Positions 900 to 9,687 of a stretch of 17,521 nucleotides of DNA are shown piece by piece. How positions within the stretch are numbered: position 1 is the first letter of the stretch; every line of letters begins with the position of its first letter. Source of the stretch: Polyangiales bacterium (GTDB lineage: Bacteria; Myxococcota_A; Polyangia; Polyangiales; Ga0077539); the NCBI GenBank assembly GCA_044346595.1, contig JBIIYX010000179.1, positions 1 to 17,521 of the forward strand, written 5' to 3'. Position numbers and translations under genes: made by a program. The notes below the pieces were generated by a model, which searched no databases, was not told the DNA's origin, and was given only the letters and a program-made list of their open reading frames with translations.

Positions 900-2474
900 A
901 TGCCAATCCTCACCGACGAAGAACGCATCGGGACGACGCTGTCGGGCAAGTACGTGCTCGACTCGGTCATCGGTCGCGGCGGCATGGGCACCGTCTTCGC
1001 TGGGTACCATGCGCTCTCGAGCCGCGGCGTGGCGGTGAAGGTGTTGCATCCGCAGCACGTGCGAGACCCCGTCGCGGTGCGGAGGTTTCTCAACGAGGCG
1101 CGCACAGCGGCTGCGTTTCGCCACGCAAACGTGGTCGACGTGCTCGACGTCGACGTGCTCGAAGACGGCACGGTCTTTCTCGTGCTCGAGCTGCTCGAGG
1201 GCGAGACGCTCGGAGAGCTGCTCAACCGGGTGGGACGGCTGCCTGTCGCCGAGACGTTGTCGATCGTCGTTCCGGTGCTGCGCGCGTTGGCGCACGCGCA
1301 TCGGATCAACATCGTTCACCGCGACCTGAAGCCGGACAACATTTTTCTCACGCCCGGCGCAAAGTGCGCGTTTCCGATCATCCTCGACTTCGGCATCGCC
1401 AAGATGCTCGACGCGCCCGAGCAGAGCATCGAGACCGTCACCGGCACCATCATCGGCACGCCGCAGTACATGGCGCCCGAGCAAGCGCTGGGCAGCAGCG
1501 AAAACACCGCGCAGCTCGACGTCTACGCGATGGGCGTCGTGTTGTTCGAGTGCCTCGCCGGCGTTCGCCCCATCGACGGAAACAACCCCGCCACCGTGCT
1601 CGCCAAGCTCGTCACGGGGCAGGTCCCGACGTTGATTTCGGTCGCGCCCGACGTCTCGCCGGGCATGTCCGAGATCACCGCGAAGGCCCTCTCGACCGCG
1701 GCGCGCGATCGTTTTGTCACATGTGACGATTTCGCCGACGCGCTGCTCGCCGAGGCCAGCGCGCTCGGCGTCGCCGTCCCCATGCCGCAGCCAGGAGACA
1801 AGCTCTCGGGCGGCGAAGGCGCGCGCACCCAGCGGCTCCGCGCGATCACCGACGGCTCCGCGCGCCGCGCGATCGGCAAGCGCCGCTCCGAGCCTCCCAC
1901 GCCCACGCTGGGCGAGCACGAGCTCGCCGAGGCGCGCGCGAGCATCGCCAACTCGACCCCGTACGACGGCGTCTCCCGGCCGAACAGCACGCAGAGCACC
2001 ATGGCGCCCACGACCGCGCAGCGCGCGGTGCGCACGACGCCAGCGTCGCTGCTCGGCGCGGTGCTCGCGTTCGTCGTGGTCGGCGTCGCTGGCGTCGCCA
2101 CCATGCGACGCGAGCCAGAGCCGCAGCAGAGCGTTCGCTCGCCCACGCTGCTCGCCTCGAGCGCCGCGACCAACACCGCCGCGCGCACCAACGCGCCTGC
2201 GGTCTCCGACACGGTCGCTGCGCAAGCGACGGCAGCGCCGCAAGCGACCGTCGATGCGGGCGCGCCGTCGACGCCCACGGCAAACGCGCGGCGCCCAGGA
2301 CGGCAGCCCTCCACGAACGCGCTGTCCGCCAACGGCAGCCCGGTCGCCGCAGCACAAGCGGCCACCGCGCCCACGGTGACCTCTGCTCCGTCGACGCCCG
2401 TTGCGCAGCCCTCGACGCCGACTCGCGCGAGCAGCGGCCAGCAACGCCCCCCTGAAGTGACCAATGTCTGGTAG
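900..2474 (+). CDS. Hanks-type Ser/Thr protein kinase with a single TM helix and an Ala/Pro/Thr/Ser-rich low-complexity extracytoplasmic tail.
   Basis: Kinase motifs are present: GRGGMGTVF (Gly loop), AVK (VAIK-type Lys), HRDLKPDNIFL (catalytic loop), DFGIAK (DFG), GTPQYMAPE (APE). A TM segment ASLLGAVLAFVVVGVAGVATM follows the kinase domain, then a long A/T/P/S-rich tail. The track start is GTG 861. I prefer ATG 900 because codons 861-899 contain rare A/T-ending codons (agt, gtt, tct) unlike the body. Confidence 0.9.
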   Translation: MPILTDEERIGTTLSGKYVLDSVIGRGGMGTVFAGYHALSSRGVAVKVLHPQHVRDPVAVRRFLNEARTAAAFRHANVVDVLDVDVLEDGTVFLVLELLEGETLGELLNRVGRLPVAETLSIVVPVLRALAHAHRINIVHRDLKPDNIFLTPGAKCAFPIILDFGIAKMLDAPEQSIETVTGTIIGTPQYMAPEQALGSSENTAQLDVYAMGVVLFECLAGVRPIDGNNPATVLAKLVTGQVPTLISVAPDVSPGMSEITAKALSTAARDRFVTCDDFADALLAEASALGVAVPMPQPGDKLSGGEGARTQRLRAITDGSARRAIGKRRSEPPTPTLGEHELAEARASIANSTPYDGVSRPNSTQSTMAPTTAQRAVRTTPASLLGAVLAFVVVGVAGVATMRREPEPQQSVRSPTLLASSAATNTAARTNAPAVSDTVAAQATAAPQATVDAGAPSTPTANARRPGRQPSTNALSANGSPVAAAQAATAPTVTSAPSTPVAQPSTPTRASSGQQRPPEVTNVW

Positions 2475-3486
2475 CCCGACTCGCCCGCGCGCGCGCCTCG
2501 TGACGGCGCTCGGCGCGCTCTTGTTCGTGACGCTCTCCACGCGCGGCGCGCACGCTCAACAATCTCCCGATGCGTCGCGCACCAGCGCCGCCGCTGCGCA
2601 GTCGAGCGCCCCCGTCGATCCGACGGTGCGCGAGGCGCGCGCTGCGTTCGAGCGCGGCATCGAAATGTCCCAGCAAGAGCGTTGGGGCGAGGCGCTGGAC
2701 GCGTTTCGACGGTCGTTCGAGCTCGTCCCGCGGCCGAGCACCGCGTTCAACATGGCCTCGACGCTCGTGCGGCTCGGCCGTCACGTCGAAGCCGTCGCCG
2801 CGTACGAACACTACCTTCGCCTCGCCAACCCGACCGCCGAAGGAGCTCGCTTCACCGACGCGCAGACGCAGCTCGCCGCCGAGCGCGCGATGGTCGCGAC
2901 GCTCGAGCTCTCGATCGCGCCCGAGGGCGCCGAGCTTCGTCTCGACGGTCGACGGGTCGAAGGCCCCCTCGCCCAGCGCGCGCTCTCGGTCGACCCCGGC
3001 TCGCACACGATCGAAGTGAGCGCCGCGCGCCACCGGGCGTTCTCGACCACCGTGCGCGTCGCGAGCGGCGAGCGAAGCCCCGTGCGCGTGAGCCTCGAGG
3101 CCATCACGACCGCGCGGCTCGAAGTGCAGTGCACGGTGCCTGGCGCGGTCGTCACCGTCGACGGCGCGCCCTTCGCGCTCGGAGGCCGCGAGGTCGGAGC
3201 GGGCGCACACGAAATCAACGTCACCGCCGCGGGCTACGAGCCCTTTCGACGGCGCGTGACGCTCGCGCCCGAGTCCACGCTGCGCGTCGACGCCTCGCTC
3301 ACGCGGGTCGTGGTCGTGCGTCCGCTGCACGCCAACCCGCTGTTCTGGGTGGCGATCGCCGGCGGAACCGCGGTCATCGCGACGAGCGTCGTGCTCGGCG
3401 TGGTGTTGAGCGGGCAAGCGCCAGAGTTCGCGACGTCCACGGGCATCACGATTCAAGCGCTCAGCGGCGGGGCTGCGCGGTTCTGA
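2464..3486 (+). CDS. Signal-peptide protein with a TPR-like helical region, two PEGA domains and a C-terminal TM anchor; partner of the upstream kinase.
   Basis: N-terminal signal MSGSPTRPRARLVTALGALLFVTLSTRGAHAQQ. TPR-like repeats (WGEALDAFRRSFELVP...HVEAVAAYEHYLRLANP). First PEGA motif 'IAPEGAELRLDGRRVEG', second 'VPGAVVTVDGAPFALGG...AHEINVTAAGYEPF'. C-terminal hydrophobic helix LFWVAIAGGTAVIATSVVLGVVL. The ATG at 2464 overlaps the kinase stop (2472..2474) by 11 nt, indicating translational coupling. Confidence 0.8.
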   Translation: MSGSPTRPRARLVTALGALLFVTLSTRGAHAQQSPDASRTSAAAAQSSAPVDPTVREARAAFERGIEMSQQERWGEALDAFRRSFELVPRPSTAFNMASTLVRLGRHVEAVAAYEHYLRLANPTAEGARFTDAQTQLAAERAMVATLELSIAPEGAELRLDGRRVEGPLAQRALSVDPGSHTIEVSAARHRAFSTTVRVASGERSPVRVSLEAITTARLEVQCTVPGAVVTVDGAPFALGGREVGAGAHEINVTAAGYEPFRRRVTLAPESTLRVDASLTRVVVVRPLHANPLFWVAIAGGTAVIATSVVLGVVLSGQAPEFATSTGITIQALSGGAARF

Positions 3487-3662
3487 GCGCGCTCAGAGGG
3501 TGTTGAATTGGAGATGACTCGCGGACTGCCAAGAGACGCGAGTCGGACAAGTAATGTCCGCGCAGCAATACTGGAGGTATTGCAAGCGGGCATGACGCAG
3601 GCCGGCGACGCGGATCTGCCGCAGGCCGCAGTCAGATCCAGTTCAACACCCTCTCAGCGCTC
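3484..3662. repeat. Lower-GC structured inverted-repeat element (MITE-like, sRNA, or bidirectional terminator module) between convergent genes.
   Basis: 24-nt arms 3489..3512 (gcgctcagagggtgttgaattgga) and 3637..3660 (tccagttcaacaccctctcagcgc) are 22/24 complementary. They enclose ~125 nt containing three clean hairpins: 3516-3523/3537-3544 (8 bp), 3544-3549/3555-3560 (6 bp) and 3565-3571/3577-3583 (7 bp). A 12-nt perfect palindrome tgagcgcgctca at 3484..3495 overlaps the + gene stop. The right arm overlaps the stop codon (3654..3656) of the minus gene. GC is clearly lower than the flanks. Confidence 0.5.
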
Positions 3663-5417
3663 GCCGGTGCGGGCGCGGACGCGGGCGACCTCTCGCGAGA
3701 AGATCCTGCGCAAGATGGCGGACGCGCAGCCGTAGGTGCTCTCGACGCCGAAGTAGCTCAGCGATTTGGACAGGAGCTCCTGCCGTCGCGAGTACGGCGT
3801 ATCCGAGGCGTAGTGCACGATCCCGAGCTCGAACGGGACCGAGTTGGACAAGTGCACGATCGTGTCTGCCGGGTGGCGATCGGGAAACGCCATCTCGAAG
3901 ACGGCGCTCAAGTACGGCCCGGCTTCCATCTCGAGCACGGTGTATCCGTCGCGGTAGTACCGGCCCATGTAGTCGCGGTTCTGCAAGAACGCGCTGCGCA
4001 CGGTGAGCGCCTTCTGGCCGTCGAGCACGGTCCCGCGGCGCATGAAGGGCTCGAGGTCCGACGCGGTGAACGCGTTGCGAAACAGATAGCGGTTTCCCGA
4101 GTGCTCATCGAAGACCGTGTCCGAGAGCATCACGTCGCCGACGCGCCCGTTGAGGGTCGCGGCCTTGCCCATCACGTACACGCCGAGCAGCTCGCTCGCG
4201 CCTTGCGTGAGGCGGGTGAGCAAGTGATACGCGGCCATTCCGAGGGGATAATCGATGTTGAGCACGACGGCGTCGCTCTGCGCGAGCAGCTCGACGCCCG
4301 GGACGCGCACGCGCGGATCGAGCCGGTCGGGGCGCAGCTTCGCGAGGTCGACGAGCTGCGCGCTGACGTCCACTTTGCCTGGGCTCGGAACGGTGCGCAC
4401 GCCCGACTCGGCGTCGAACTGCTGCACCTGCAGCAAGAGCTCTTTGGTGTCGACGTCCGCCTCGTGAAGCCACGCGCGCAAGAGGTAGTACGAGAGGTTC
4501 GAGAGCGTGTCCTCGTCGCCGCCCTCGAGCGCTTGCTCGACGACCTCCGCGAGGCGCTCGGGGTTCTTGCGACGCACGAACTCGACGATCGAGTCGCGGT
4601 GCGCCCGCGCGTAGCCGCCGACGAGGTTGAGCACCGAGTGCGTGTTGGACGAGACGAAGTAGATCGGCGGGCGCTTCGGCGTGCTCTCGCGCACGTATGC
4701 GGGCTCGATGCCGCTGAACCACCGGTGCGCCGCGCGCTGATAGCCCGTGTACGTGGTCGACAGCACGCGGAGCTTCAAGTCGCTCTCTCTCGCGACGATC
4801 GCGCGCAGGCCAGCGTCGAGCTGATCGCCGAGCGCGGCGCGGATGGTCGCGATTCCGCTGGCGTCGAGCCCGAGCAGCGCAGAGAGCTCGGCGTCGTCGA
4901 TGTCGAGCGGGTCCTCGGCAGGAGCGCGCGCGATGGCGCGGCCGAGGGCGCTGTGCGCGAGGCGGTCGTGGAGCTTGTTCCACTCGATCTGGTAGGCGGT
5001 CACGATCGGGATGAGGTCGTCGAGGTCGCTGGTGCTCGTGAGAAACACCGCGAGCATGTCCGCGCCGTTGTGCCGCAAGGGTCTCCTGCGGCCGCGCGTG
5101 CGGACCTCGGCCCAGTCGCGCACCTCGAGTCCGATGGCCTCGAACTGCTCGTGCGACTGCCCGAGCACGATGCGCCCGATCGCCGGCATGCACGCGGGCA
5201 AGCGCGCCGCCGCGTACGCAAACGCGGCCACGTCCGGGACGCTGTCCCGCGCGCCGAGGTGCAGCGTCGAGTCGCTGAACGCGTGCGTCTCTTCGAAGGC
5301 GCGAACACGCACCTCGCCGGTGCTGCGCAAGAGCGAGTAGTACGTTCGGATGTAGAGCTCGACGCCGTCGCTCGCGGCTTCGAGCGGCGCGTTGGTGTTC
5401 GTGGGTCGGTCCGTCAT
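3654..5417 (-). CDS. Hypothetical two-domain protein: unknown ~330-aa N-terminal region plus a C-terminal nucleoside phosphorylase family-1 (PNP/UDP/MTAN-like) domain, possibly a nucleosidase.
   Basis: The C-terminal part carries the three hallmark PNP_UDP_1 motifs. 'VVLNIDYPLGMA' corresponds to VVLMPGDPLRA of DeoD. 'GKAATLNGRVGDVMLSDTVFDEHSG' corresponds to GSAGGL...VGDIVVSDEARYHD of Pfs. 'VLEMEAGPYLSA' corresponds to VEMEAAA. The track ORF starts at 5471, but the first 18 codons have poor GC3 (gga, cct, cgt, cca, tca), so the ATG at 5417 (MTDRPTNT...) is preferred. The domain assignment is by motif memory, not a search. Confidence 0.7.
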   Translation of the reverse strand: MTDRPTNTNAPLEAASDGVELYIRTYYSLLRSTGEVRVRAFEETHAFSDSTLHLGARDSVPDVAAFAYAAARLPACMPAIGRIVLGQSHEQFEAIGLEVRDWAEVRTRGRRRPLRHNGADMLAVFLTSTSDLDDLIPIVTAYQIEWNKLHDRLAHSALGRAIARAPAEDPLDIDDAELSALLGLDASGIATIRAALGDQLDAGLRAIVARESDLKLRVLSTTYTGYQRAAHRWFSGIEPAYVRESTPKRPPIYFVSSNTHSVLNLVGGYARAHRDSIVEFVRRKNPERLAEVVEQALEGGDEDTLSNLSYYLLRAWLHEADVDTKELLLQVQQFDAESGVRTVPSPGKVDVSAQLVDLAKLRPDRLDPRVRVPGVELLAQSDAVVLNIDYPLGMAAYHLLTRLTQGASELLGVYVMGKAATLNGRVGDVMLSDTVFDEHSGNRYLFRNAFTASDLEPFMRRGTVLDGQKALTVRSAFLQNRDYMGRYYRDGYTVLEMEAGPYLSAVFEMAFPDRHPADTIVHLSNSVPFELGIVHYASDTPYSRRQELLSKSLSYFGVESTYGCASAILRRIFSREVARVRARTGER

Positions 5418-5590
5418 CGTGTGTGATGGACGAGGGTCGCAGACCGTGGCGAGCGCGGCCAACTTTCCCATCGCCCCGAAAGGACCGAAAATCGAACTGC
5501 TGAGCGCTCTGCAATCGTGATACGCAAAGACGTCGGTCGGCAGGTCGAGCGAGTCTGTGCCGCGCGGCAGAAACAGGGCAGGCAGTCACG

Positions 5591-6118
5591 ATGGGTTTCG
5601 ATCCGAATGGTGGGCAAGGCGGACAAGGCGGCCAAGGCGGCGGATGGCCTTCACCCCCACAGCAGGGCGGCGCGTGGGGACAACCGCAACCACAGCAAGG
5701 CATCGCGCCGTACCAGCAGCAACAGGGCTACCCACAGCAACAGGGCTACCCACAGCAGCAGGGCTACGCACAGCAGCAGGGCTACCCGCAGCAAGGGCAG
5801 TTTGGTCAGCCGCAGCAGCAGTGGGGCGCGCCGCCGCCGATCAACATCATCGTTCAGAACACCAACCAGAACACCAACGTCGCGATGGGCGGCGGCGGGT
5901 TCGCGTACCCGCCAAAGTCCAAGACGACCGCGCTGCTGCTCGCGATCGTGCCGGGGCTCTTCGGGCTGTGCGGATTTCACAGCTTCTATGCAGGCAAGCC
6001 GATGACCGGGTTGCTGCAGCTGTTTACGCTGGGCGGCTGCGGCGTCTGGCATCTCATCGACGTCGTGACGCTGTCGATCGGCAGCTATCGAGACAGCAAC
6101 GGTCAGCCGTTGGTGTGA
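5591..6118 (+). CDS. TM2-domain membrane protein with an N-terminal Gly/Gln/Pro-rich low-complexity (prion-like) region containing (QQQGYP)x4.
   Basis: The C-terminal 'LLLAIVPGLFGLCGFHSFYAGKPMTGLLQLFTLGGCGVWHLIDVVTL' matches the TM2 domain pattern: two TM helices, a G-[HD]-[RS]-F-Y-[LA]-G motif and a G-[IV]-W-x-[LI]-[IL]-D motif. The N-terminus MGFDPNGGQGG is shared with the downstream paralogue. Confidence 0.85.
   Translation: MGFDPNGGQGGQGGQGGGWPSPPQQGGAWGQPQPQQGIAPYQQQQGYPQQQGYPQQQGYAQQQGYPQQGQFGQPQQQWGAPPPINIIVQNTNQNTNVAMGGGGFAYPPKSKTTALLLAIVPGLFGLCGFHSFYAGKPMTGLLQLFTLGGCGVWHLIDVVTLSIGSYRDSNGQPLV
5717..5788 (+). repeat. Four tandem in-frame 18-nt repeats (cagcaacagggctaccca and variants) encoding QQQGYP.
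   Basis: Units at 5717-5734, 5735-5752, 5753-5770 and 5771-5788. The first two are identical and the others differ by 1-2 nt. Confidence 0.8.
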
Positions 6119-6408
6119 TCGCTGATCGAGCGACGCGCGCAAGGCCGCCGACGCTCGATGTGGGGCGCCATCGATCCGTCGAGAACTTTTCGAATCGCCG
6201 CGAACTGAGGCACGGTGCGGGTCCGTCGTCGTCGCCGCTTCGAGCCGATCGCTGTTGGTCGTCGCGAGCGCGCCGTCGACCGACGTGAACGAGAGACGTG
6301 CGCGCATTGGCGCGGGAGCTCCCGAGAGATTCGCGCGCGTCAGATCGACACGTGTGCGATGCTCTTTCGCGAGCAGTCGCACAGTTTCGTGCAGGAGGAA
6401 GTAGACAG

Positions 6409-7257
6409 ATGGGATTCGATCCGAACGGTGGTCAGGGTGGCGGAGGCTGGCCGCCTGGCGGTGGTGGCGGCGGTGGACAGGGAGGATGGCCTCCCCCCGG
6501 TGGCGCTCCGCCCGCGCAGGGTGGTGGCTTCAATCCGACGCCGCCCGCGCAGGGTGGCTTCGGTGCGCCTCCGCCCGCACAGGGTGGCTTCGGCGCTCCT
6601 CCGCAGGGGGGTGGTTTCGGTGCGCCTCCGCCCGCGCAGGGCGGCTTCGGTGCGCCTCCGCAGGGCGGCGCGTTCGGCGCTCCGCAGCAGGGTGGCTTCG
6701 GCGCTCCTGCGGCCGCTCCGCAGGGCGGCTTCGGCGCGCCCGGCGGCTTCGGCGCGGCGCCCGGCGGCATGGGCATGGTCCCCGCGGGCGGCGGCTTCGG
6801 CGCGCCCGGCGCGATGTCGCCCGGCGGCGTGAGCGACAAGGACCAGGCCACGGCGTTCTTGCTCGCGGCGTTCTTGGGGACGATGGGCGCGGACCGCTTC
6901 TATCTCGGTCAGACCAACCTCGGCATCGCCAAGCTCCTCACCGGTGGAGGCTGCGGCATCTGGGCGATCTACGACCTCGTCATGATCGGCATGGGCAAGA
7001 TGCGCGACGCGCAGGGACGCGCGCTTCGCACCGAGCCCATCGTCGGGACGCCCACGCGCCAGCAGTCGACGGCGTTCTTGCTCTCGTGGCTCGGCGGCTT
7101 CTTCGGTGCCGACCGCTTCTACCTCGGCCAGACAGGGCTCGGCATCGCCAAGCTCCTCACTGGTGGAGGCTGCGGCATCTGGTTCTTGATCGACTACATC
7201 ATGATCGGCATGGGCAAGATGAAGGACGCCCAGGGCAACTCGCTCCTCCCGGAGTGA
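6409..7257 (+). CDS. Paralogous protein with two tandem TM2 domains and an N-terminal Gly/Pro/Ala-rich low-complexity region ((PPAQGGFGAP)n).
   Basis: Two TM2 units: 'ATAFLLAAFLGTMGADRFYLGQTNLGIAKLLTGGGCGIWAIYDLVMIGMGKM' and 'STAFLLSWLGGFFGADRFYLGQTGLGIAKLLTGGGCGIWFLIDYIMIGMGKM'. I take the start as ATG 6409 rather than track start 6298. The encoded N-terminus MGFDPNGGQGG is identical to the upstream paralogue's, and the DNA is near-identical. A strong SD 'aggagga' (6393..6399) lies 9 nt upstream. Confidence 0.85.
   Translation: MGFDPNGGQGGGGWPPGGGGGGGQGGWPPPGGAPPAQGGGFNPTPPAQGGFGAPPPAQGGFGAPPQGGGFGAPPPAQGGFGAPPQGGAFGAPQQGGFGAPAAAPQGGFGAPGGFGAAPGGMGMVPAGGGFGAPGAMSPGGVSDKDQATAFLLAAFLGTMGADRFYLGQTNLGIAKLLTGGGCGIWAIYDLVMIGMGKMRDAQGRALRTEPIVGTPTRQQSTAFLLSWLGGFFGADRFYLGQTGLGIAKLLTGGGCGIWFLIDYIMIGMGKMKDAQGNSLLPE
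6541..6690 (+). repeat. Tandem ~30-nt (27-30) in-frame repeats ccgcccgcgcagggtggcttcggtgcgcct encoding PPAQGGFGAP. A degenerate continuation runs to about 6800.
   Basis: Units at 6541-6570, 6571-6600, 6601-6627 and 6628-6657, then increasingly diverged copies (GGFGAP repeated about 10 times at protein level). Confidence 0.8.
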
Positions 7258-7264
7258 GCGCGCG

Positions 7265-7750
7265 ATGAGCGCCTTCAGCGAGGCCGTCGACCGAGTCCAA
7301 CGATCACCGCGCGCGCGTGCGGCGATCGTGCTCGTCGTCGGCCTCGCTGCATTTTCCGCGGCGTACAGCGGGCTCGCGACGAGCGGCCCGGCCCTCTGCC
7401 CTTCGCGGCTCGTCTTCGACACGCCGTGCGCGACCTGCGGAATGACCCGCGCCTTCGCAGGCCTTCTTCACGCCGACCTCGAGTACGCGCTGCGCGCCAA
7501 CGCGGGCTCTCCGCTGGCGTTCGCGATCGTGCTCGCGCACGGGCTCGCGTACCTCGCGCAGCTCTTCACCGGGCGCACGCTCGTGCGTGATTTCTGGGCG
7601 AACCGCCGAAGCAAACGCGTCGCAGGCGCGCTGCTGCTCTCGCTCGTGCTCTTCTCGGCCGTGAGCAATTTCGTTCGGCACCGAGAGGGACGCGGGCCCT
7701 TGCACCTCGCGCCGTGGAGCGCCGCTCAGTTGCGCCCTGCGACGCACTGA
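7265..7750 (+). CDS. DUF2752-family small membrane protein (CPx..CxxCGxTRA motif).
   Basis: N-terminal TM 'AAIVLVVGLAAFSAAYSGL' is followed by 'CPSRLVFDTPCATCGMTRAFAGLLHADLEYALRANAGSPLAF', which matches the DUF2752 signature (CP...C..CG.TRA...LL.GD...A...NP) as I recall it. There are further TM helices. It starts 8 nt after the TM2x2 gene stop, so it is likely co-transcribed. Confidence 0.75.
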   Translation: MSAFSEAVDRVQRSPRARAAIVLVVGLAAFSAAYSGLATSGPALCPSRLVFDTPCATCGMTRAFAGLLHADLEYALRANAGSPLAFAIVLAHGLAYLAQLFTGRTLVRDFWANRRSKRVAGALLLSLVLFSAVSNFVRHREGRGPLHLAPWSAAQLRPATH

Positions 7751-9687
7751 CAGAGCTGCCTGCGCAAGAGCATCGCGCACTGCCCCGCGCGCAGCCGCTC
7801 GATGTCCGCGCCCGCGGGCGTCGCTGCGAGCGTCGCGCGCTGCGCCATCACGCTCTGCAGCTCGTCGCAGCGATCGCTCGTTCGAAGCACCACCCTCGCC
7901 CGGCTCGCGGCGTCGAGCAACGCGAGCCGCTCGCGCGCGAGGCGCCCCGCCCGGCGTCGCGCGTCCTGTGAGCGGCCGAACACGGTCTCTTCTGCGAGCA
8001 CGCGCGCCGCGGTGCGAGAGCGGGCGAGCGCTCCGACGCGCAAGAGCGTCTCGGCGCTGCTGCCCGCGCCAGGGTCGTCGAGCAGACGCAGCAGCGTGCG
8101 CACGAGCGCCTCGTCCTCGGCGAGCTGAGGGTCGCGCGAGGTGGCGTTGGCGAACGCGCCGACCGCAGCGACCCCTTGTCGATCCGCGGCGTAGAGCATG
8201 GCGAGCTGCATCGAGACGAGCGCGTCGTCCTCGGCGTTGGGGTGCGCGATTTTGCGGGCGACGAGCGCATCAATGGCCGAGCGAACGTCGCCGTGCGCGG
8301 CGCGCGAGAGCGCCGAGGAGACGTCGGATTGCGCCCGAAGCGCCGCGATACGCTCGCTCGTGCTCGACGCTCGGGCGACGCGCGCGCGGCGGCCGGACGT
8401 GGACGCGAGCGACCACGAGAGGTTCACCACGACGCTGAGCGCGACGATCAGCACGACGACGACCGGAACTTCACCGAGCCGCCCCATGCGGATCACCGGC
8501 AGCCCGAGGATCTTCGGCGGCGCGGTCGCACCAGCGGGCGCGAGCGCGCTCGGAGCGGTCGTTTGCAGGTGATCTTGAATCGTGGGGGCAGTATTCGAGA
8601 CGGTGGGCGCGTCGATGGCGCCCTGCGCTGCGTACAGGGTCTTCTCGTGCGCGACGACGCTGCTGGTGGCGGGCTGCGTCGCGGCGAAGCCGAGCTGCGC
8701 GGTCGCCGTCGCGAGCGTGGGCGCGAGGCACTCGTCGATGGCGTCCATCGCGTCGGAGACCGAGGCGAAGCGCTCGATCGGGCTCTTGGCGAGGAGGCGA
8801 TCGAAGACGCCGTCGATCGCCGCTGGCAGATCGGGCGCCGCGGAGCTCGCGCGCGGGACCGCCCCGTTGACTTGCAGATCGAGCAGCTCGAGGAGGTTCT
8901 TGTGGTCGAAGGGCTTTCGCCCGGTGAGCAGCTCGAACGCGAGGACGCCGAACGCGTACTGATCGGCGGCGGCGTCGACGCGGCGGCCCATGGCCTGCTC
9001 GGGGGACATGTAGTGCGGCGTTCCGAAGATGACGCCGGTTTGCGTGAGGGGCTTGTCGCTCTCGCTCGCGCCGGTGAAGCGCGCGATCCCGAAGTCGATG
9101 ATCTTCACGAGCTCTTCGCCCGCGGCGCGCGGAACGACCAGGATGTTCTCGGGCTTGAGGTCTCGGTGGACGATCTCGAGCGAGTGCGCTCTGCCGAGCG
9201 CCGAGGCGATCTGTCGCAAGAGCTTGAGCGCGCGCAGCGTCGCGGGCCGCGGCGTCTCACCGAGCAGCTCTCTGAGCGAGCGCCCCTCGATGAACTCCAT
9301 CGCGAGAAAAAACGCTCCGTCGTCGAGCTGACCGAAGTCCGACGCCGACGCGATGTTCTCGTGCTCGAGCCGCGCCATGGCCATCGCCTCGCGCTCGAAG
9401 CGCGCGCGCACCTCGGCGTTCGAGTGCATGTCCGCGTGCAGGATCTTGATCGCGACCTTCTTGCCGAGCGCGGTGTGCTCGGCGAGGTAGACGGCGCCCA
9501 TCCCGCCCTCGCCGATGCGCTCGATCACGCGAAAGCGCGAGGCGACCAGCGCGCCCACGAGCGGGTCGCTCGGCGCAGACGCGCGCGGCGCATCCTCGGG
9601 CTGAGACGGCGCTGGCGCGCTCGCGGCGGCCGTCGAACGCGGCCCCATTGTGGGCGCGTCACGGTCGGTGATCGACGGGTTGCTCAA
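7726..9687 (-). CDS. Membrane Ser/Thr protein kinase with a C-terminal helical (Ala/Arg/Leu-rich, TPR-like) extracytoplasmic domain.
   Basis: Kinase motifs: GEGGMGAVYLAEH, VAIKILH, HRDLKPENILV, DFGIARF, GTPHYMSPEQ. TM segment VPVVVVLIVALSVVVNLSWSLA. It starts 9 nt after the upstream secreted-protein gene. Its 3' end overlaps the convergent DUF2752 gene by 25 nt. Confidence 0.9.
   Translation of the reverse strand: MSNPSITDRDAPTMGPRSTAAASAPAPSQPEDAPRASAPSDPLVGALVASRFRVIERIGEGGMGAVYLAEHTALGKKVAIKILHADMHSNAEVRARFEREAMAMARLEHENIASASDFGQLDDGAFFLAMEFIEGRSLRELLGETPRPATLRALKLLRQIASALGRAHSLEIVHRDLKPENILVVPRAAGEELVKIIDFGIARFTGASESDKPLTQTGVIFGTPHYMSPEQAMGRRVDAAADQYAFGVLAFELLTGRKPFDHKNLLELLDLQVNGAVPRASSAAPDLPAAIDGVFDRLLAKSPIERFASVSDAMDAIDECLAPTLATATAQLGFAATQPATSSVVAHEKTLYAAQGAIDAPTVSNTAPTIQDHLQTTAPSALAPAGATAPPKILGLPVIRMGRLGEVPVVVVLIVALSVVVNLSWSLASTSGRRARVARASSTSERIAALRAQSDVSSALSRAAHGDVRSAIDALVARKIAHPNAEDDALVSMQLAMLYAADRQGVAAVGAFANATSRDPQLAEDEALVRTLLRLLDDPGAGSSAETLLRVGALARSRTAARVLAEETVFGRSQDARRRAGRLARERLALLDAASRARVVLRTSDRCDELQSVMAQRATLAATPAGADIERLRAGQCAMLLRRQLCQCVAGRN

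Follow-up and report, generated by a model that had tools for sequence, protein, structure and literature searches.

A helix-b cysteine of TM2 membrane proteins tracks DUF2752: a recurrent gene pair with low-complexity tails in a Polyangiales bacterium

Why would a bacterium encode two small TM2 proteins with long low-complexity N-terminal tails directly in front of a third small membrane protein of the family DUF2752, and what might these proteins do together? The question is raised by a stretch of 17,521 nucleotides (nt) from the metagenome-assembled genome of a soil Polyangiales bacterium (contig JBIIYX010000179.1 of assembly GCA_044346595.1; hereafter the window; GC content ~70%), in which the gene order was assigned via Pfam. 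TM2 and DUF2752 are large catalogued families without known function, and a literature search retrieved no paper naming DUF2752 and none giving a function for bacterial TM2, DUF4234 or DUF4190. The present analysis finds DUF2752 repeatedly in operons with small hairpin membrane proteins of several families and, as a new result, a single cysteine of TM2 whose occurrence goes along with that of DUF2752, which makes the resulting hypothesis addressable by mutagenesis. The value of the locus lies in this testable hypothesis for two large families; the gene pair is widespread and catalogued, and the locus is an ordinary instance of it. The features concerned are as follows (aa, amino acids; TM, transmembrane; HMM, hidden Markov model):

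5591-6118, + strand: gene 1, single-TM2 protein of 175 aa (Pfam TM2, PF05154)
5915-6109, + strand: TM2 domain of gene 1, aa 109-173, with the helix-b Cys in LGGCGVW (local TM2 HMM alignment, Pfam)
6409-7257, + strand: gene 2, double-TM2 protein of 282 aa (two Pfam TM2 matches, ortholog alignment)
6838-7020, + strand: TM2 domain 1 of gene 2, aa 144-204, with DRF and GGGCGIW (local HMM alignment)
7057-7239, + strand: TM2 domain 2 of gene 2, aa 217-277, with DRF and GGGCGIW (local HMM alignment)
7265-7750, + strand: gene 3, DUF2752 protein of 161 aa with three predicted TM helices (Pfam PF10825)
7397-7453, + strand: motif C45-x9-C55-x2-C58-G-M-T-R-A of gene 3, right after the first TM helix (invariant columns)

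All three family assignments, which the original prediction had made from the sequence alone, lie far above the Pfam cut-offs. Gene 1 matches PF05154 with E = 9.6e-16 (58.2 bits, cut-off 27.9; aa 108-159), gene 2 contains two PF05154 domains (E = 3.5e-36, 123.6 bits against 27.9), and gene 3 matches PF10825 (E = 3.6e-12, 46.6 bits against 27). NCBIfam gave no matches, and PDB sequence searches returned no match for TM2 or DUF2752. The mechanical open reading frame (ORF) of gene 2 spans 6298-7257; its start was moved to the ATG at 6409 because all orthologs begin with MGFDP and an AGGAGGA lies just upstream. The gene 1 protein comprises an uncharged Q/G/P/Y-rich tail (aa 1-108), a INIIVQNTNQNTN juxtamembrane motif, the TM2 domain and the C-terminal RDSNGQPLV. 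In the gene 2 protein, 29 conserved N-terminal aa (MGFDPNGGQGGGGWPPG...QGGWPPP) precede a variable GFGAP array, two TM2 hairpins connected via a conserved basic linker, and the C-terminal KDAQGNSLLPE. Both domains of gene 2 carry ADRFYLG; in gene 1 and its orthologs the motif is HSFYAG, with loss of the Arg of the usual (D/H)RFYLG. Hydropathy, and DSSP applied to a low-confidence model, show the TM2 helices. The DNA of the two domain copies in gene 2 is ~84% identical over 134 nt (cross-comparison with contig L013), and the contigs of close relatives (L003-L006, L013) break inside gene 2 (window ~6679-7004), either in the repeat array or between the TM2 domains.

The DUF2752 gene starts 8 nt downstream of the gene 2 stop, as had been noted: the spacer is 7 nt long (7258-7264), and the ATG begins with the eighth nucleotide. 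The genes are tightly coupled, by this 7-nt spacer here and by overlapping stop and start codons elsewhere. The gene 3 protein is 100% identical, and the window DNA 97% identical, to a contig of "Myxococcales bacterium bin23". A CxxC/CGxTRA motif had been pointed out in it, and it is present as C45-x9-C55-x2-C58-G-M-T-R-A. Residues C45, C55, C58, G59, M60, T61, R62 and A63 are invariant across 43 diverse DUF2752 sequences, the invariance of M60 being partly a product of the word-based search, and the motif is followed by HG(D/E). The AlphaFold2 (AF2) model of gene 3 (predicted local distance difference test score, pLDDT, 85.9) has one long TM helix, a 45-residue segment of short helices holding the Cys motif, and two further TM helices. 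The family counts 26,184 representatives at 50% identity (E ≤1e-3). Some members (P0181, P0194, P0260 and P0297) are internal tandem duplications with two C-x9-C-x2-C-G-M-T motifs, which suggests that DUF2752 may act as a dimer. Longer DUF2752 matches had also been considered as TM2 fusions; this was ruled out, as they are DUF2752-DUF2752 duplications.

Neighbourhood counts were derived from a metagenome scan, because a scan of genome contigs with close-homolog alignment gave 2 loci only. The metagenome scan yielded 80 diverse DUF2752 loci, for 71 of which the nearest same-strand upstream ORF was scanned against Pfam. This upstream partner was most often DUF4234 (22 loci) or TM2 (19 loci), followed by RnfB-like proteins (3), TatC (2) and DUF7544 (2), and 7-9 partners among the 71 loci matched zinc-ribbon models. 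TM2 lies directly before DUF2752 in five of the six Polyangiales-type contigs that cover the upstream region; on the sixth (P0008) a 258-aa gene without a Pfam record takes this place. The order TM2, DUF2752 was seen in the relatives L001, L002, L007, L015 and L024, and in a Verrucomicrobia metagenome-assembled genome (MAG; L016) a double-TM2 gene ending in KDAQGNSLKFG stands directly before DUF2752. Other arrangements were DUF4190, DUF2752, YidD (L017 and L018) and zinc-ribbon/PG-rich Yip1, DUF2752, PlsY (L019-22); at these DUF4190 and Yip1 loci (L017-L022) the stop of the partner and the start of DUF2752 overlap or abut. DUF2752 on viral contigs was limited to 3 loci, which encode the same DUF2752 and TM2 proteins, with a 69-aa TM2 gene overlapping the DUF2752 start. 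The frequent proximity of TM2 and DUF2752 named in the original prediction is thus borne out by the metagenomic loci, the relatives, the Verrucomicrobia MAG and the viral contigs; the adjacency, whose absence from other genomes would have counted against that prediction, is conserved there. The order TM2, DUF2752 recurs across phyla, and the partnership of DUF2752 is broader than TM2, as it also includes DUF4234, DUF4190 and Yip1. A single superfamily of all DUF2752 partners was ruled out, since an hhalign comparison of TM2 and DUF4234 revealed no homology outside the zinc ribbon.

The adjacency could in principle be nothing but inherited synteny, and the tails the product of neutral slippage in a GC-rich genome, with no functional coupling between the proteins. 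Because the whole block is syntenic among Polyangiales-type relatives, adjacency within this group is indeed little informative on its own. However, the adjacency recurs in unrelated contexts with GC contents from 23% to 70%, stop and start codons overlap in many loci, and the tails lack Lys/Arg and keep their N-terminal motif in orthologs with diverged repeats. We thus disfavor an absence of coupling, which appears extremely improbable.

The TM2 domains linked to DUF2752 share a further property. A Cys in helix b (GGCGIW) is found in 29 of 31 such domains, including those of the window, where the local TM2 HMM alignment places it in GGGCGIW twice in gene 2 and in LGGCGVW once in gene 1; the window locus thereby has both a same-strand TM2 gene directly upstream of DUF2752 and the helix-b Cys. 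The two exceptions are L075, with a Cys three residues earlier, and the second domain of L016, which follows a Cys-bearing first domain. For comparison, TM2 domains on viral contigs were collected with a DNA pattern for GxHRFYLG(K/N), which is independent of the Cys position. Only 2 of these 23 domains have the helix-b Cys, and no DUF2752 motif was found near them on their contigs. The residue is likewise absent from six plasmid or chromid TM2 proteins without a nearby DUF2752 (0/6), which have F, L or A instead, so that 2 of 29 unlinked TM2 domains carry it in total. The difference between linked and viral domains is significant in a test that ignores shared ancestry (Fisher's exact test; p = 1e-10). 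Cysteines also mark two other partner families, with two invariant TCG motifs in DUF4234 and C-C-G in DUF4190.

The position of these cysteines relative to the membrane can be estimated from charge. DUF2752 has a net charge of +1.8 on its N-terminal side and +2.1 in the loop between its second and third TM helices, and the charge density is low in the Cys region. We infer an N-in protein with three TM helices, the loop between the second and third helix inside and the Cys motif at the periplasmic leaflet. The TM2 proteins would also be N-in, so that their helix-b Cys would lie in the outer-leaflet half of the bilayer. The tails of genes 1 and 2 are probably cytoplasmic, because zinc ribbons occupy the equivalent N-terminal position in many DUF2752-linked TM2, DUF4234 and Yip1 proteins, an N-terminal hydrophobic segment is lacking, and the inter-domain linker is net positive. 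As the partner Cys and the Cys3 motif of DUF2752 would then both lie toward the periplasmic leaflet, the two proteins are predicted to touch via their cysteines.

Our preferred reading, which we hold tentatively and rate somewhat short of an even chance, is that TM2 and DUF2752 form an obligate inner-membrane complex joined via thiols or a metal. In such a complex, DUF2752 would engage the TM2 hairpin via the cysteines, either in a shared 3+1 thiolate metal site or through a mixed or relayed disulfide, and could thereby assemble, lock or redox-gate a hairpin oligomer. The cytoplasmic tails of 100-170 residues would serve as multivalent tethers that associate with themselves or bind partners, their length being tuned by repeat slippage under strong compositional constraint, and the MGFDPNGGQGG..WPP head, which both subtypes share, might be a short motif for binding. 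The single (HSF) and double (DRF) TM2 proteins would probably enter one mixed complex with DUF2752.

The main rival to a stable complex is a relation of enzyme and substrate, in which DUF2752 is a dedicated thiol-disulfide oxidoreductase or Cys-modifying enzyme that acts once on new hairpin proteins, for example by forming covalent dimers, and then releases them. The CxxC at a helix N-terminus on the predicted periplasmic face would suit such an enzyme, as would the fact that one small protein serves several unrelated partner families which share just a TM Cys. Genes for YidD or TatC, moreover, adjoin some loci, which may hint at a link of DUF2752 with membrane-protein biogenesis. L017 (2705-3720) and L018 (2696-3718) encode a PP-rich MmsF-like protein, DUF4190, DUF2752, the membrane-insertion factor YidD and SspB, and in L070 and L071 TatC lies just upstream of DUF2752. 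However, the DUF2752 fold has no similarity to DsbB, VKOR or CcdA, and a redox cofactor site is not evident. Tight translational coupling furthermore suggests a 1:1 stoichiometry, which fits a subunit better than a catalyst. We favor the subunit and regard the enzyme as unlikely.

Several points weigh against the complex itself. The contact between TM2 and DUF2752 is deduced from sequence, and the only basis of the topologies is counts of charges and the logic of domain fusions; for metazoan TM2D proteins the opposite orientation is drawn, N-out and with an inside DRF loop (PMC8714088). For gene 2, the AF2 model built from five sequences is of low confidence (pLDDT 36.8), and only its helix positions are usable. 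The linked TM2 domains could be a single clade that inherited the helix-b Cys, and the unlinked controls come from viruses and plasmids rather than from chromosomes. Around 40% of the sampled DUF2752 loci have neither TM2 nor DUF4234 upstream, and at least one, from Rhodococcus, has no same-strand upstream partner. In addition, the DUF2752 sequences sampled were those with a [TG]CGMTRAF motif, in an order set by their similarity to the protein of gene 3.

The idea of a complex can be taken further. DUF2752 would then represent a new kind of small membrane protein, whose periplasm-side Cys3-Thr-Arg grips the intramembrane Cys of TM2, DUF4234 and DUF4190 hairpins by a metal, disulfide or thiol and sets their oligomeric state, with the uncharged FG/QY tails of this lineage forming a membrane-tethered cohesive layer on the cytoplasmic face. 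We consider this generalization possible but hardly probable.

The tails owe their low complexity to two repeat arrays:

5717-5794, + strand: 18-nt tandem repeat, 4.3 copies, encoding (QQQGYP)4 in gene 1 (Tandem Repeats Finder, 91% matches, score 128)
6498-6708, + strand: imperfect 27/30/57-nt tandem repeats encoding (PPAQGGFGAP)n in gene 2 (Tandem Repeats Finder)

Both arrays and the domain counts that go with them, (QQQGYP)4 with a single TM2 and (PPAQGGFGAP)n with two tandem TM2 domains, were found as originally described. Within the array of gene 2, Tandem Repeats Finder detects a 30-nt unit in 5.5 copies at 6498-6661, and related periods reach to 6708. The tails of gene 1 and gene 2 (108 and 143 residues) contain no Lys or Arg and 1-2 Asp/Glu, compared with 21.5% charged residues in neighbouring proteins, so that their composition is not a matter of chance. 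It was further analyzed in a set of 16 proteins of both subtypes, taking the region before the first TM2 domain (73-172 aa). Lys/Arg are absent from 15 of the 16 tails, with one such residue in the remaining protein. Asp/Glu number 0-3; MGFDP-type tails owe theirs to the Asp within MGFDP itself and to one or two residues beside the membrane. Most orthologs have one aromatic residue per 8-11 residues of the tail. The repeat units themselves differ, as the tail of L015 is built of QQQGFGAP and that of L025 is degenerate. A comparison of repeat number among strains, as had been proposed, gave lengths of 282, 290 and 311 aa for the double-TM2 protein: the window protein (282 aa) is 100% identical to P0128 (290 aa) except for one 8-residue repeat, and the protein of L002 has 311 aa. 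Near-invariant parts of the double subtype are its 29 N-terminal residues, the two TM2 domains with the basic linker between them, and the C-terminal KDAQGNSLLPE, and the indels in the GFGAP array comprise whole repeats.

This variation bears on the proposal that the tails are periplasmic or surface-exposed and vary adaptively, as in a phage receptor or adhesin. Repeat number differs between strains that are 92-100% identical, the N-terminal region of metazoan TM2D proteins lies outside the cell (PMC8714088), and the charge bias around the TM2 helices is merely modest, all of which agrees with exposed tails. However, the variation affects the number of repeats, whereas the composition is strictly maintained and the N-terminal motif conserved; it does not amount to diversifying sequence change. 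An N-tail of 108-143 residues would also have to cross the membrane without a signal peptide, since genes 1 and 2 have neither a signal peptide nor an N-terminal hydrophobic segment, and homologous partners have zinc ribbons at the equivalent N-termini. The surface or phage-receptor role that the original prediction suggested is therefore improbable.

The same prediction offered a holin-like role as an alternative. More broadly, the pair might form a pore, a toxin and its immunity protein, or a phage-exclusion or defence system in which a TM2 oligomer causes the lesion and DUF2752 restrains it. TM2 does match several phage families in PHROGs, all of unknown function, and the pair occurs on viral contigs. 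A tblastn search of TM2 against phages retrieved 2 hypothetical proteins only, and the three viral loci make DUF2752 very rare on such contigs. Against a lytic or defensive function, PADLOC produced no match for genes 1-3 or for the adjacent DUF6909 gene, and no endolysin, integrase or other mobile-element, lysis or defence domain was present in the neighbouring ORFs scanned. Moreover, the genes belong to a stable, syntenic block of housekeeping type that persists down to 45% DUF2752 identity. Hence, we found no support for a holin-like role, and consider this group of functions highly improbable.

How did two TM2 genes come to stand side by side? The original prediction assumed a lineage-specific duplication from the shared N-terminus of the two proteins and their nearly identical 5' DNA. 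The first 11 residues (MGFDPNGGQGG) are indeed identical, and 33 nt of DNA align with 27 identical positions; the near-identity was overstated, as the similarity ends there and no further DNA similarity exists between the two genes. All six mismatches are synonymous third positions, which indicates that the peptide is conserved and that the DNA was not freshly copied. Moreover, the TM2 domains of genes 1 and 2 are only 38% identical, and each subtype has orthologs in other lineages. A recent, lineage-specific duplication that made gene 1 from gene 2 is thereby ruled out. The two genes are rather old TM2 subtypes, of which relatives hold one, the other or both in the syntenic slot. A full-length comparison of gene 1 with the 147-aa single-TM2 protein P0123 gives 51% identity. 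P0123 fills the slot alone in a Myxococcales MAG (L024; DUF6909, TM2, DUF2752, kinase, ..., M17, OPT), and the gene 1 orthologs P0121-P0124 (51-57% identity) all start with MGFDPNGGQG. The double-TM2 gene is alone in the slot in L001, L002 and L015. L025 has the single and the double TM2 gene in tandem in the same order as the window; this independent occurrence, together with the shared DNA of just 33 nt, ruled out a misassembly as the origin of the tandem. The single subtype is marked by HSFYAG, a INIIVQNTNQNTN-like juxtamembrane motif and an RD(S/A)NGQPL tail, and the latter two are also found in low-GC homologs such as L104 and L068. The INIIVQNTNQNTN segment (5855-5878; gene 1 aa 84-97) has an amyloid-like Asn/Gln/Ile pattern and is kept in the distant low-GC single-TM2 homologs L104, L068 and P0125. 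Specific to the lineage of the window are the uncharged repeat tails and the possession of both TM2 subtypes.

The region around gene 1 could be delimited by alignment:

5464-6312, no strand assigned: segment with gene 1 and its flanks, 849 nt (BLASTN and global alignment against L002 and L001)

L002, whose DNA is 92-94% identical to the window, lacks gene 1, and an unrelated intergenic stretch of 138 nt replaces 5464-6312. Because this intergenic DNA is common to L002 and the more distant L001, the gene 1-bearing state of the window looks derived, by replacement or recombination; alternatively, gene 1 may have been differentially lost from a two-gene ancestor.

The remaining features of the surroundings are:

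861-2471, + strand: Ser/Thr kinase (Pfam)
2464-3483, + strand: TPR/PEGA protein (Pfam)
3654-5471, - strand: DUF6909 gene, 605 aa, divergent from the TM2 genes (Pfam, E = 1.1e-203)
6313-6408, + strand: leader 5' of gene 2 with an AGGAGGA ribosome-binding site (conservation)
7726-9687, - strand: Ser/Thr kinase, convergent, a syntenic neighbour (Pfam Pkinase, E = 3.6e-43)

Beyond the convergent kinase follow, in this order, a hypothetical gene, an M17 aminopeptidase, an OPT transporter and a homolog of the major vault protein. The DUF6909 gene is a divergent syntenic neighbour in all Polyangiales-type relatives (the 6 contigs covering the upstream region) and has no homolog by PDB sequence search. 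Any functional tie to the TM2-DUF2752 pair is putative. At their 3' ends, the DUF2752 gene and the convergent kinase gene share 25 nt (7726-7750), as they do in L001, L002 and L007. The protein of the vault gene (14094-16616, + strand), 840 aa long, is homologous to the major vault protein of eukaryotes (Pfam MVP_shoulder 5.5e-25, Vault_3 6e-8), and the gene keeps an equivalent position in L001 and the P0008 contig. In the region 5300-7900, a promoter scan and Rfam gave no matches, and the sole terminator-like hairpin (5366-5389, within the DUF6909 gene) scored no better than shuffled sequences. The leader in front of gene 2 is 94% identical to that of L002 and 79% identical to those of L001 and L007, and the DNA farther upstream is unalignable. 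It has no Rfam match, and its predicted hairpins are without convincing covariation.

Among known systems, the bacterial and phage 'NINE protein'/YozV proteins (COG2314) are likewise small TM2 proteins. Many of them start with a zinc ribbon or a low-complexity region and end in a D-x-x-G-x-P-L tail; genes 1 and 2 encode members of a subset with the helix-b Cys and a downstream DUF2752. The same operon logic is found where DUF2752 accompanies zinc-ribbon or low-complexity DUF4234 proteins. These too combine a cytoplasmic zinc ribbon and/or a G/P/Q/Y-rich tail with a helical domain that has an invariant TM Cys (TCGIY), but their membrane domain is of another family than TM2. DsbB and VKOR, like DUF2752, are small all-helical proteins of the inner membrane whose CxxC lies near the periplasmic face. 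They are four-helix bundles with two Cys pairs and a quinone site, features that DUF2752 does not have, and the likeness is a functional analogy only. The tails have the uncharged, aromatic-spaced composition of FG-nucleoporins and prion-like domains, a G/Q/P matrix with regularly spaced aromatics (GFGAP, QQQGYP) in the manner of stickers and spacers; they differ in being bacterial, membrane-tethered and short, and the likeness is one of composition only.

The metazoan counterparts are TM2D1-3 (BBP; Drosophila biscotti, amaretto and almondex), in which TM2 also consists of two TM helices with a short loop and D-R-F, present twice as DRF in gene 2. These proteins have a signal sequence and an extracellular N-terminal region (PMC8714088). 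The window proteins, in contrast, lack a signal peptide, begin with MGFDPNGGQGG without a hydrophobic segment, and have a low-complexity N-tail that is predicted to be cytoplasmic. They differ further in the two tandem TM2 domains of gene 2, in HSF for DRF in gene 1, and in sharing an operon with DUF2752. In metazoans, TM2D proteins act on Notch and gamma-secretase signalling and influence the risk of Alzheimer disease, by a mechanism that is unknown (PMC8714088). If the proposed TM2-DUF2752 complex exists, bacteria would offer a tractable system for the molecular function of TM2, with relevance to these Alzheimer- and Notch-linked proteins.

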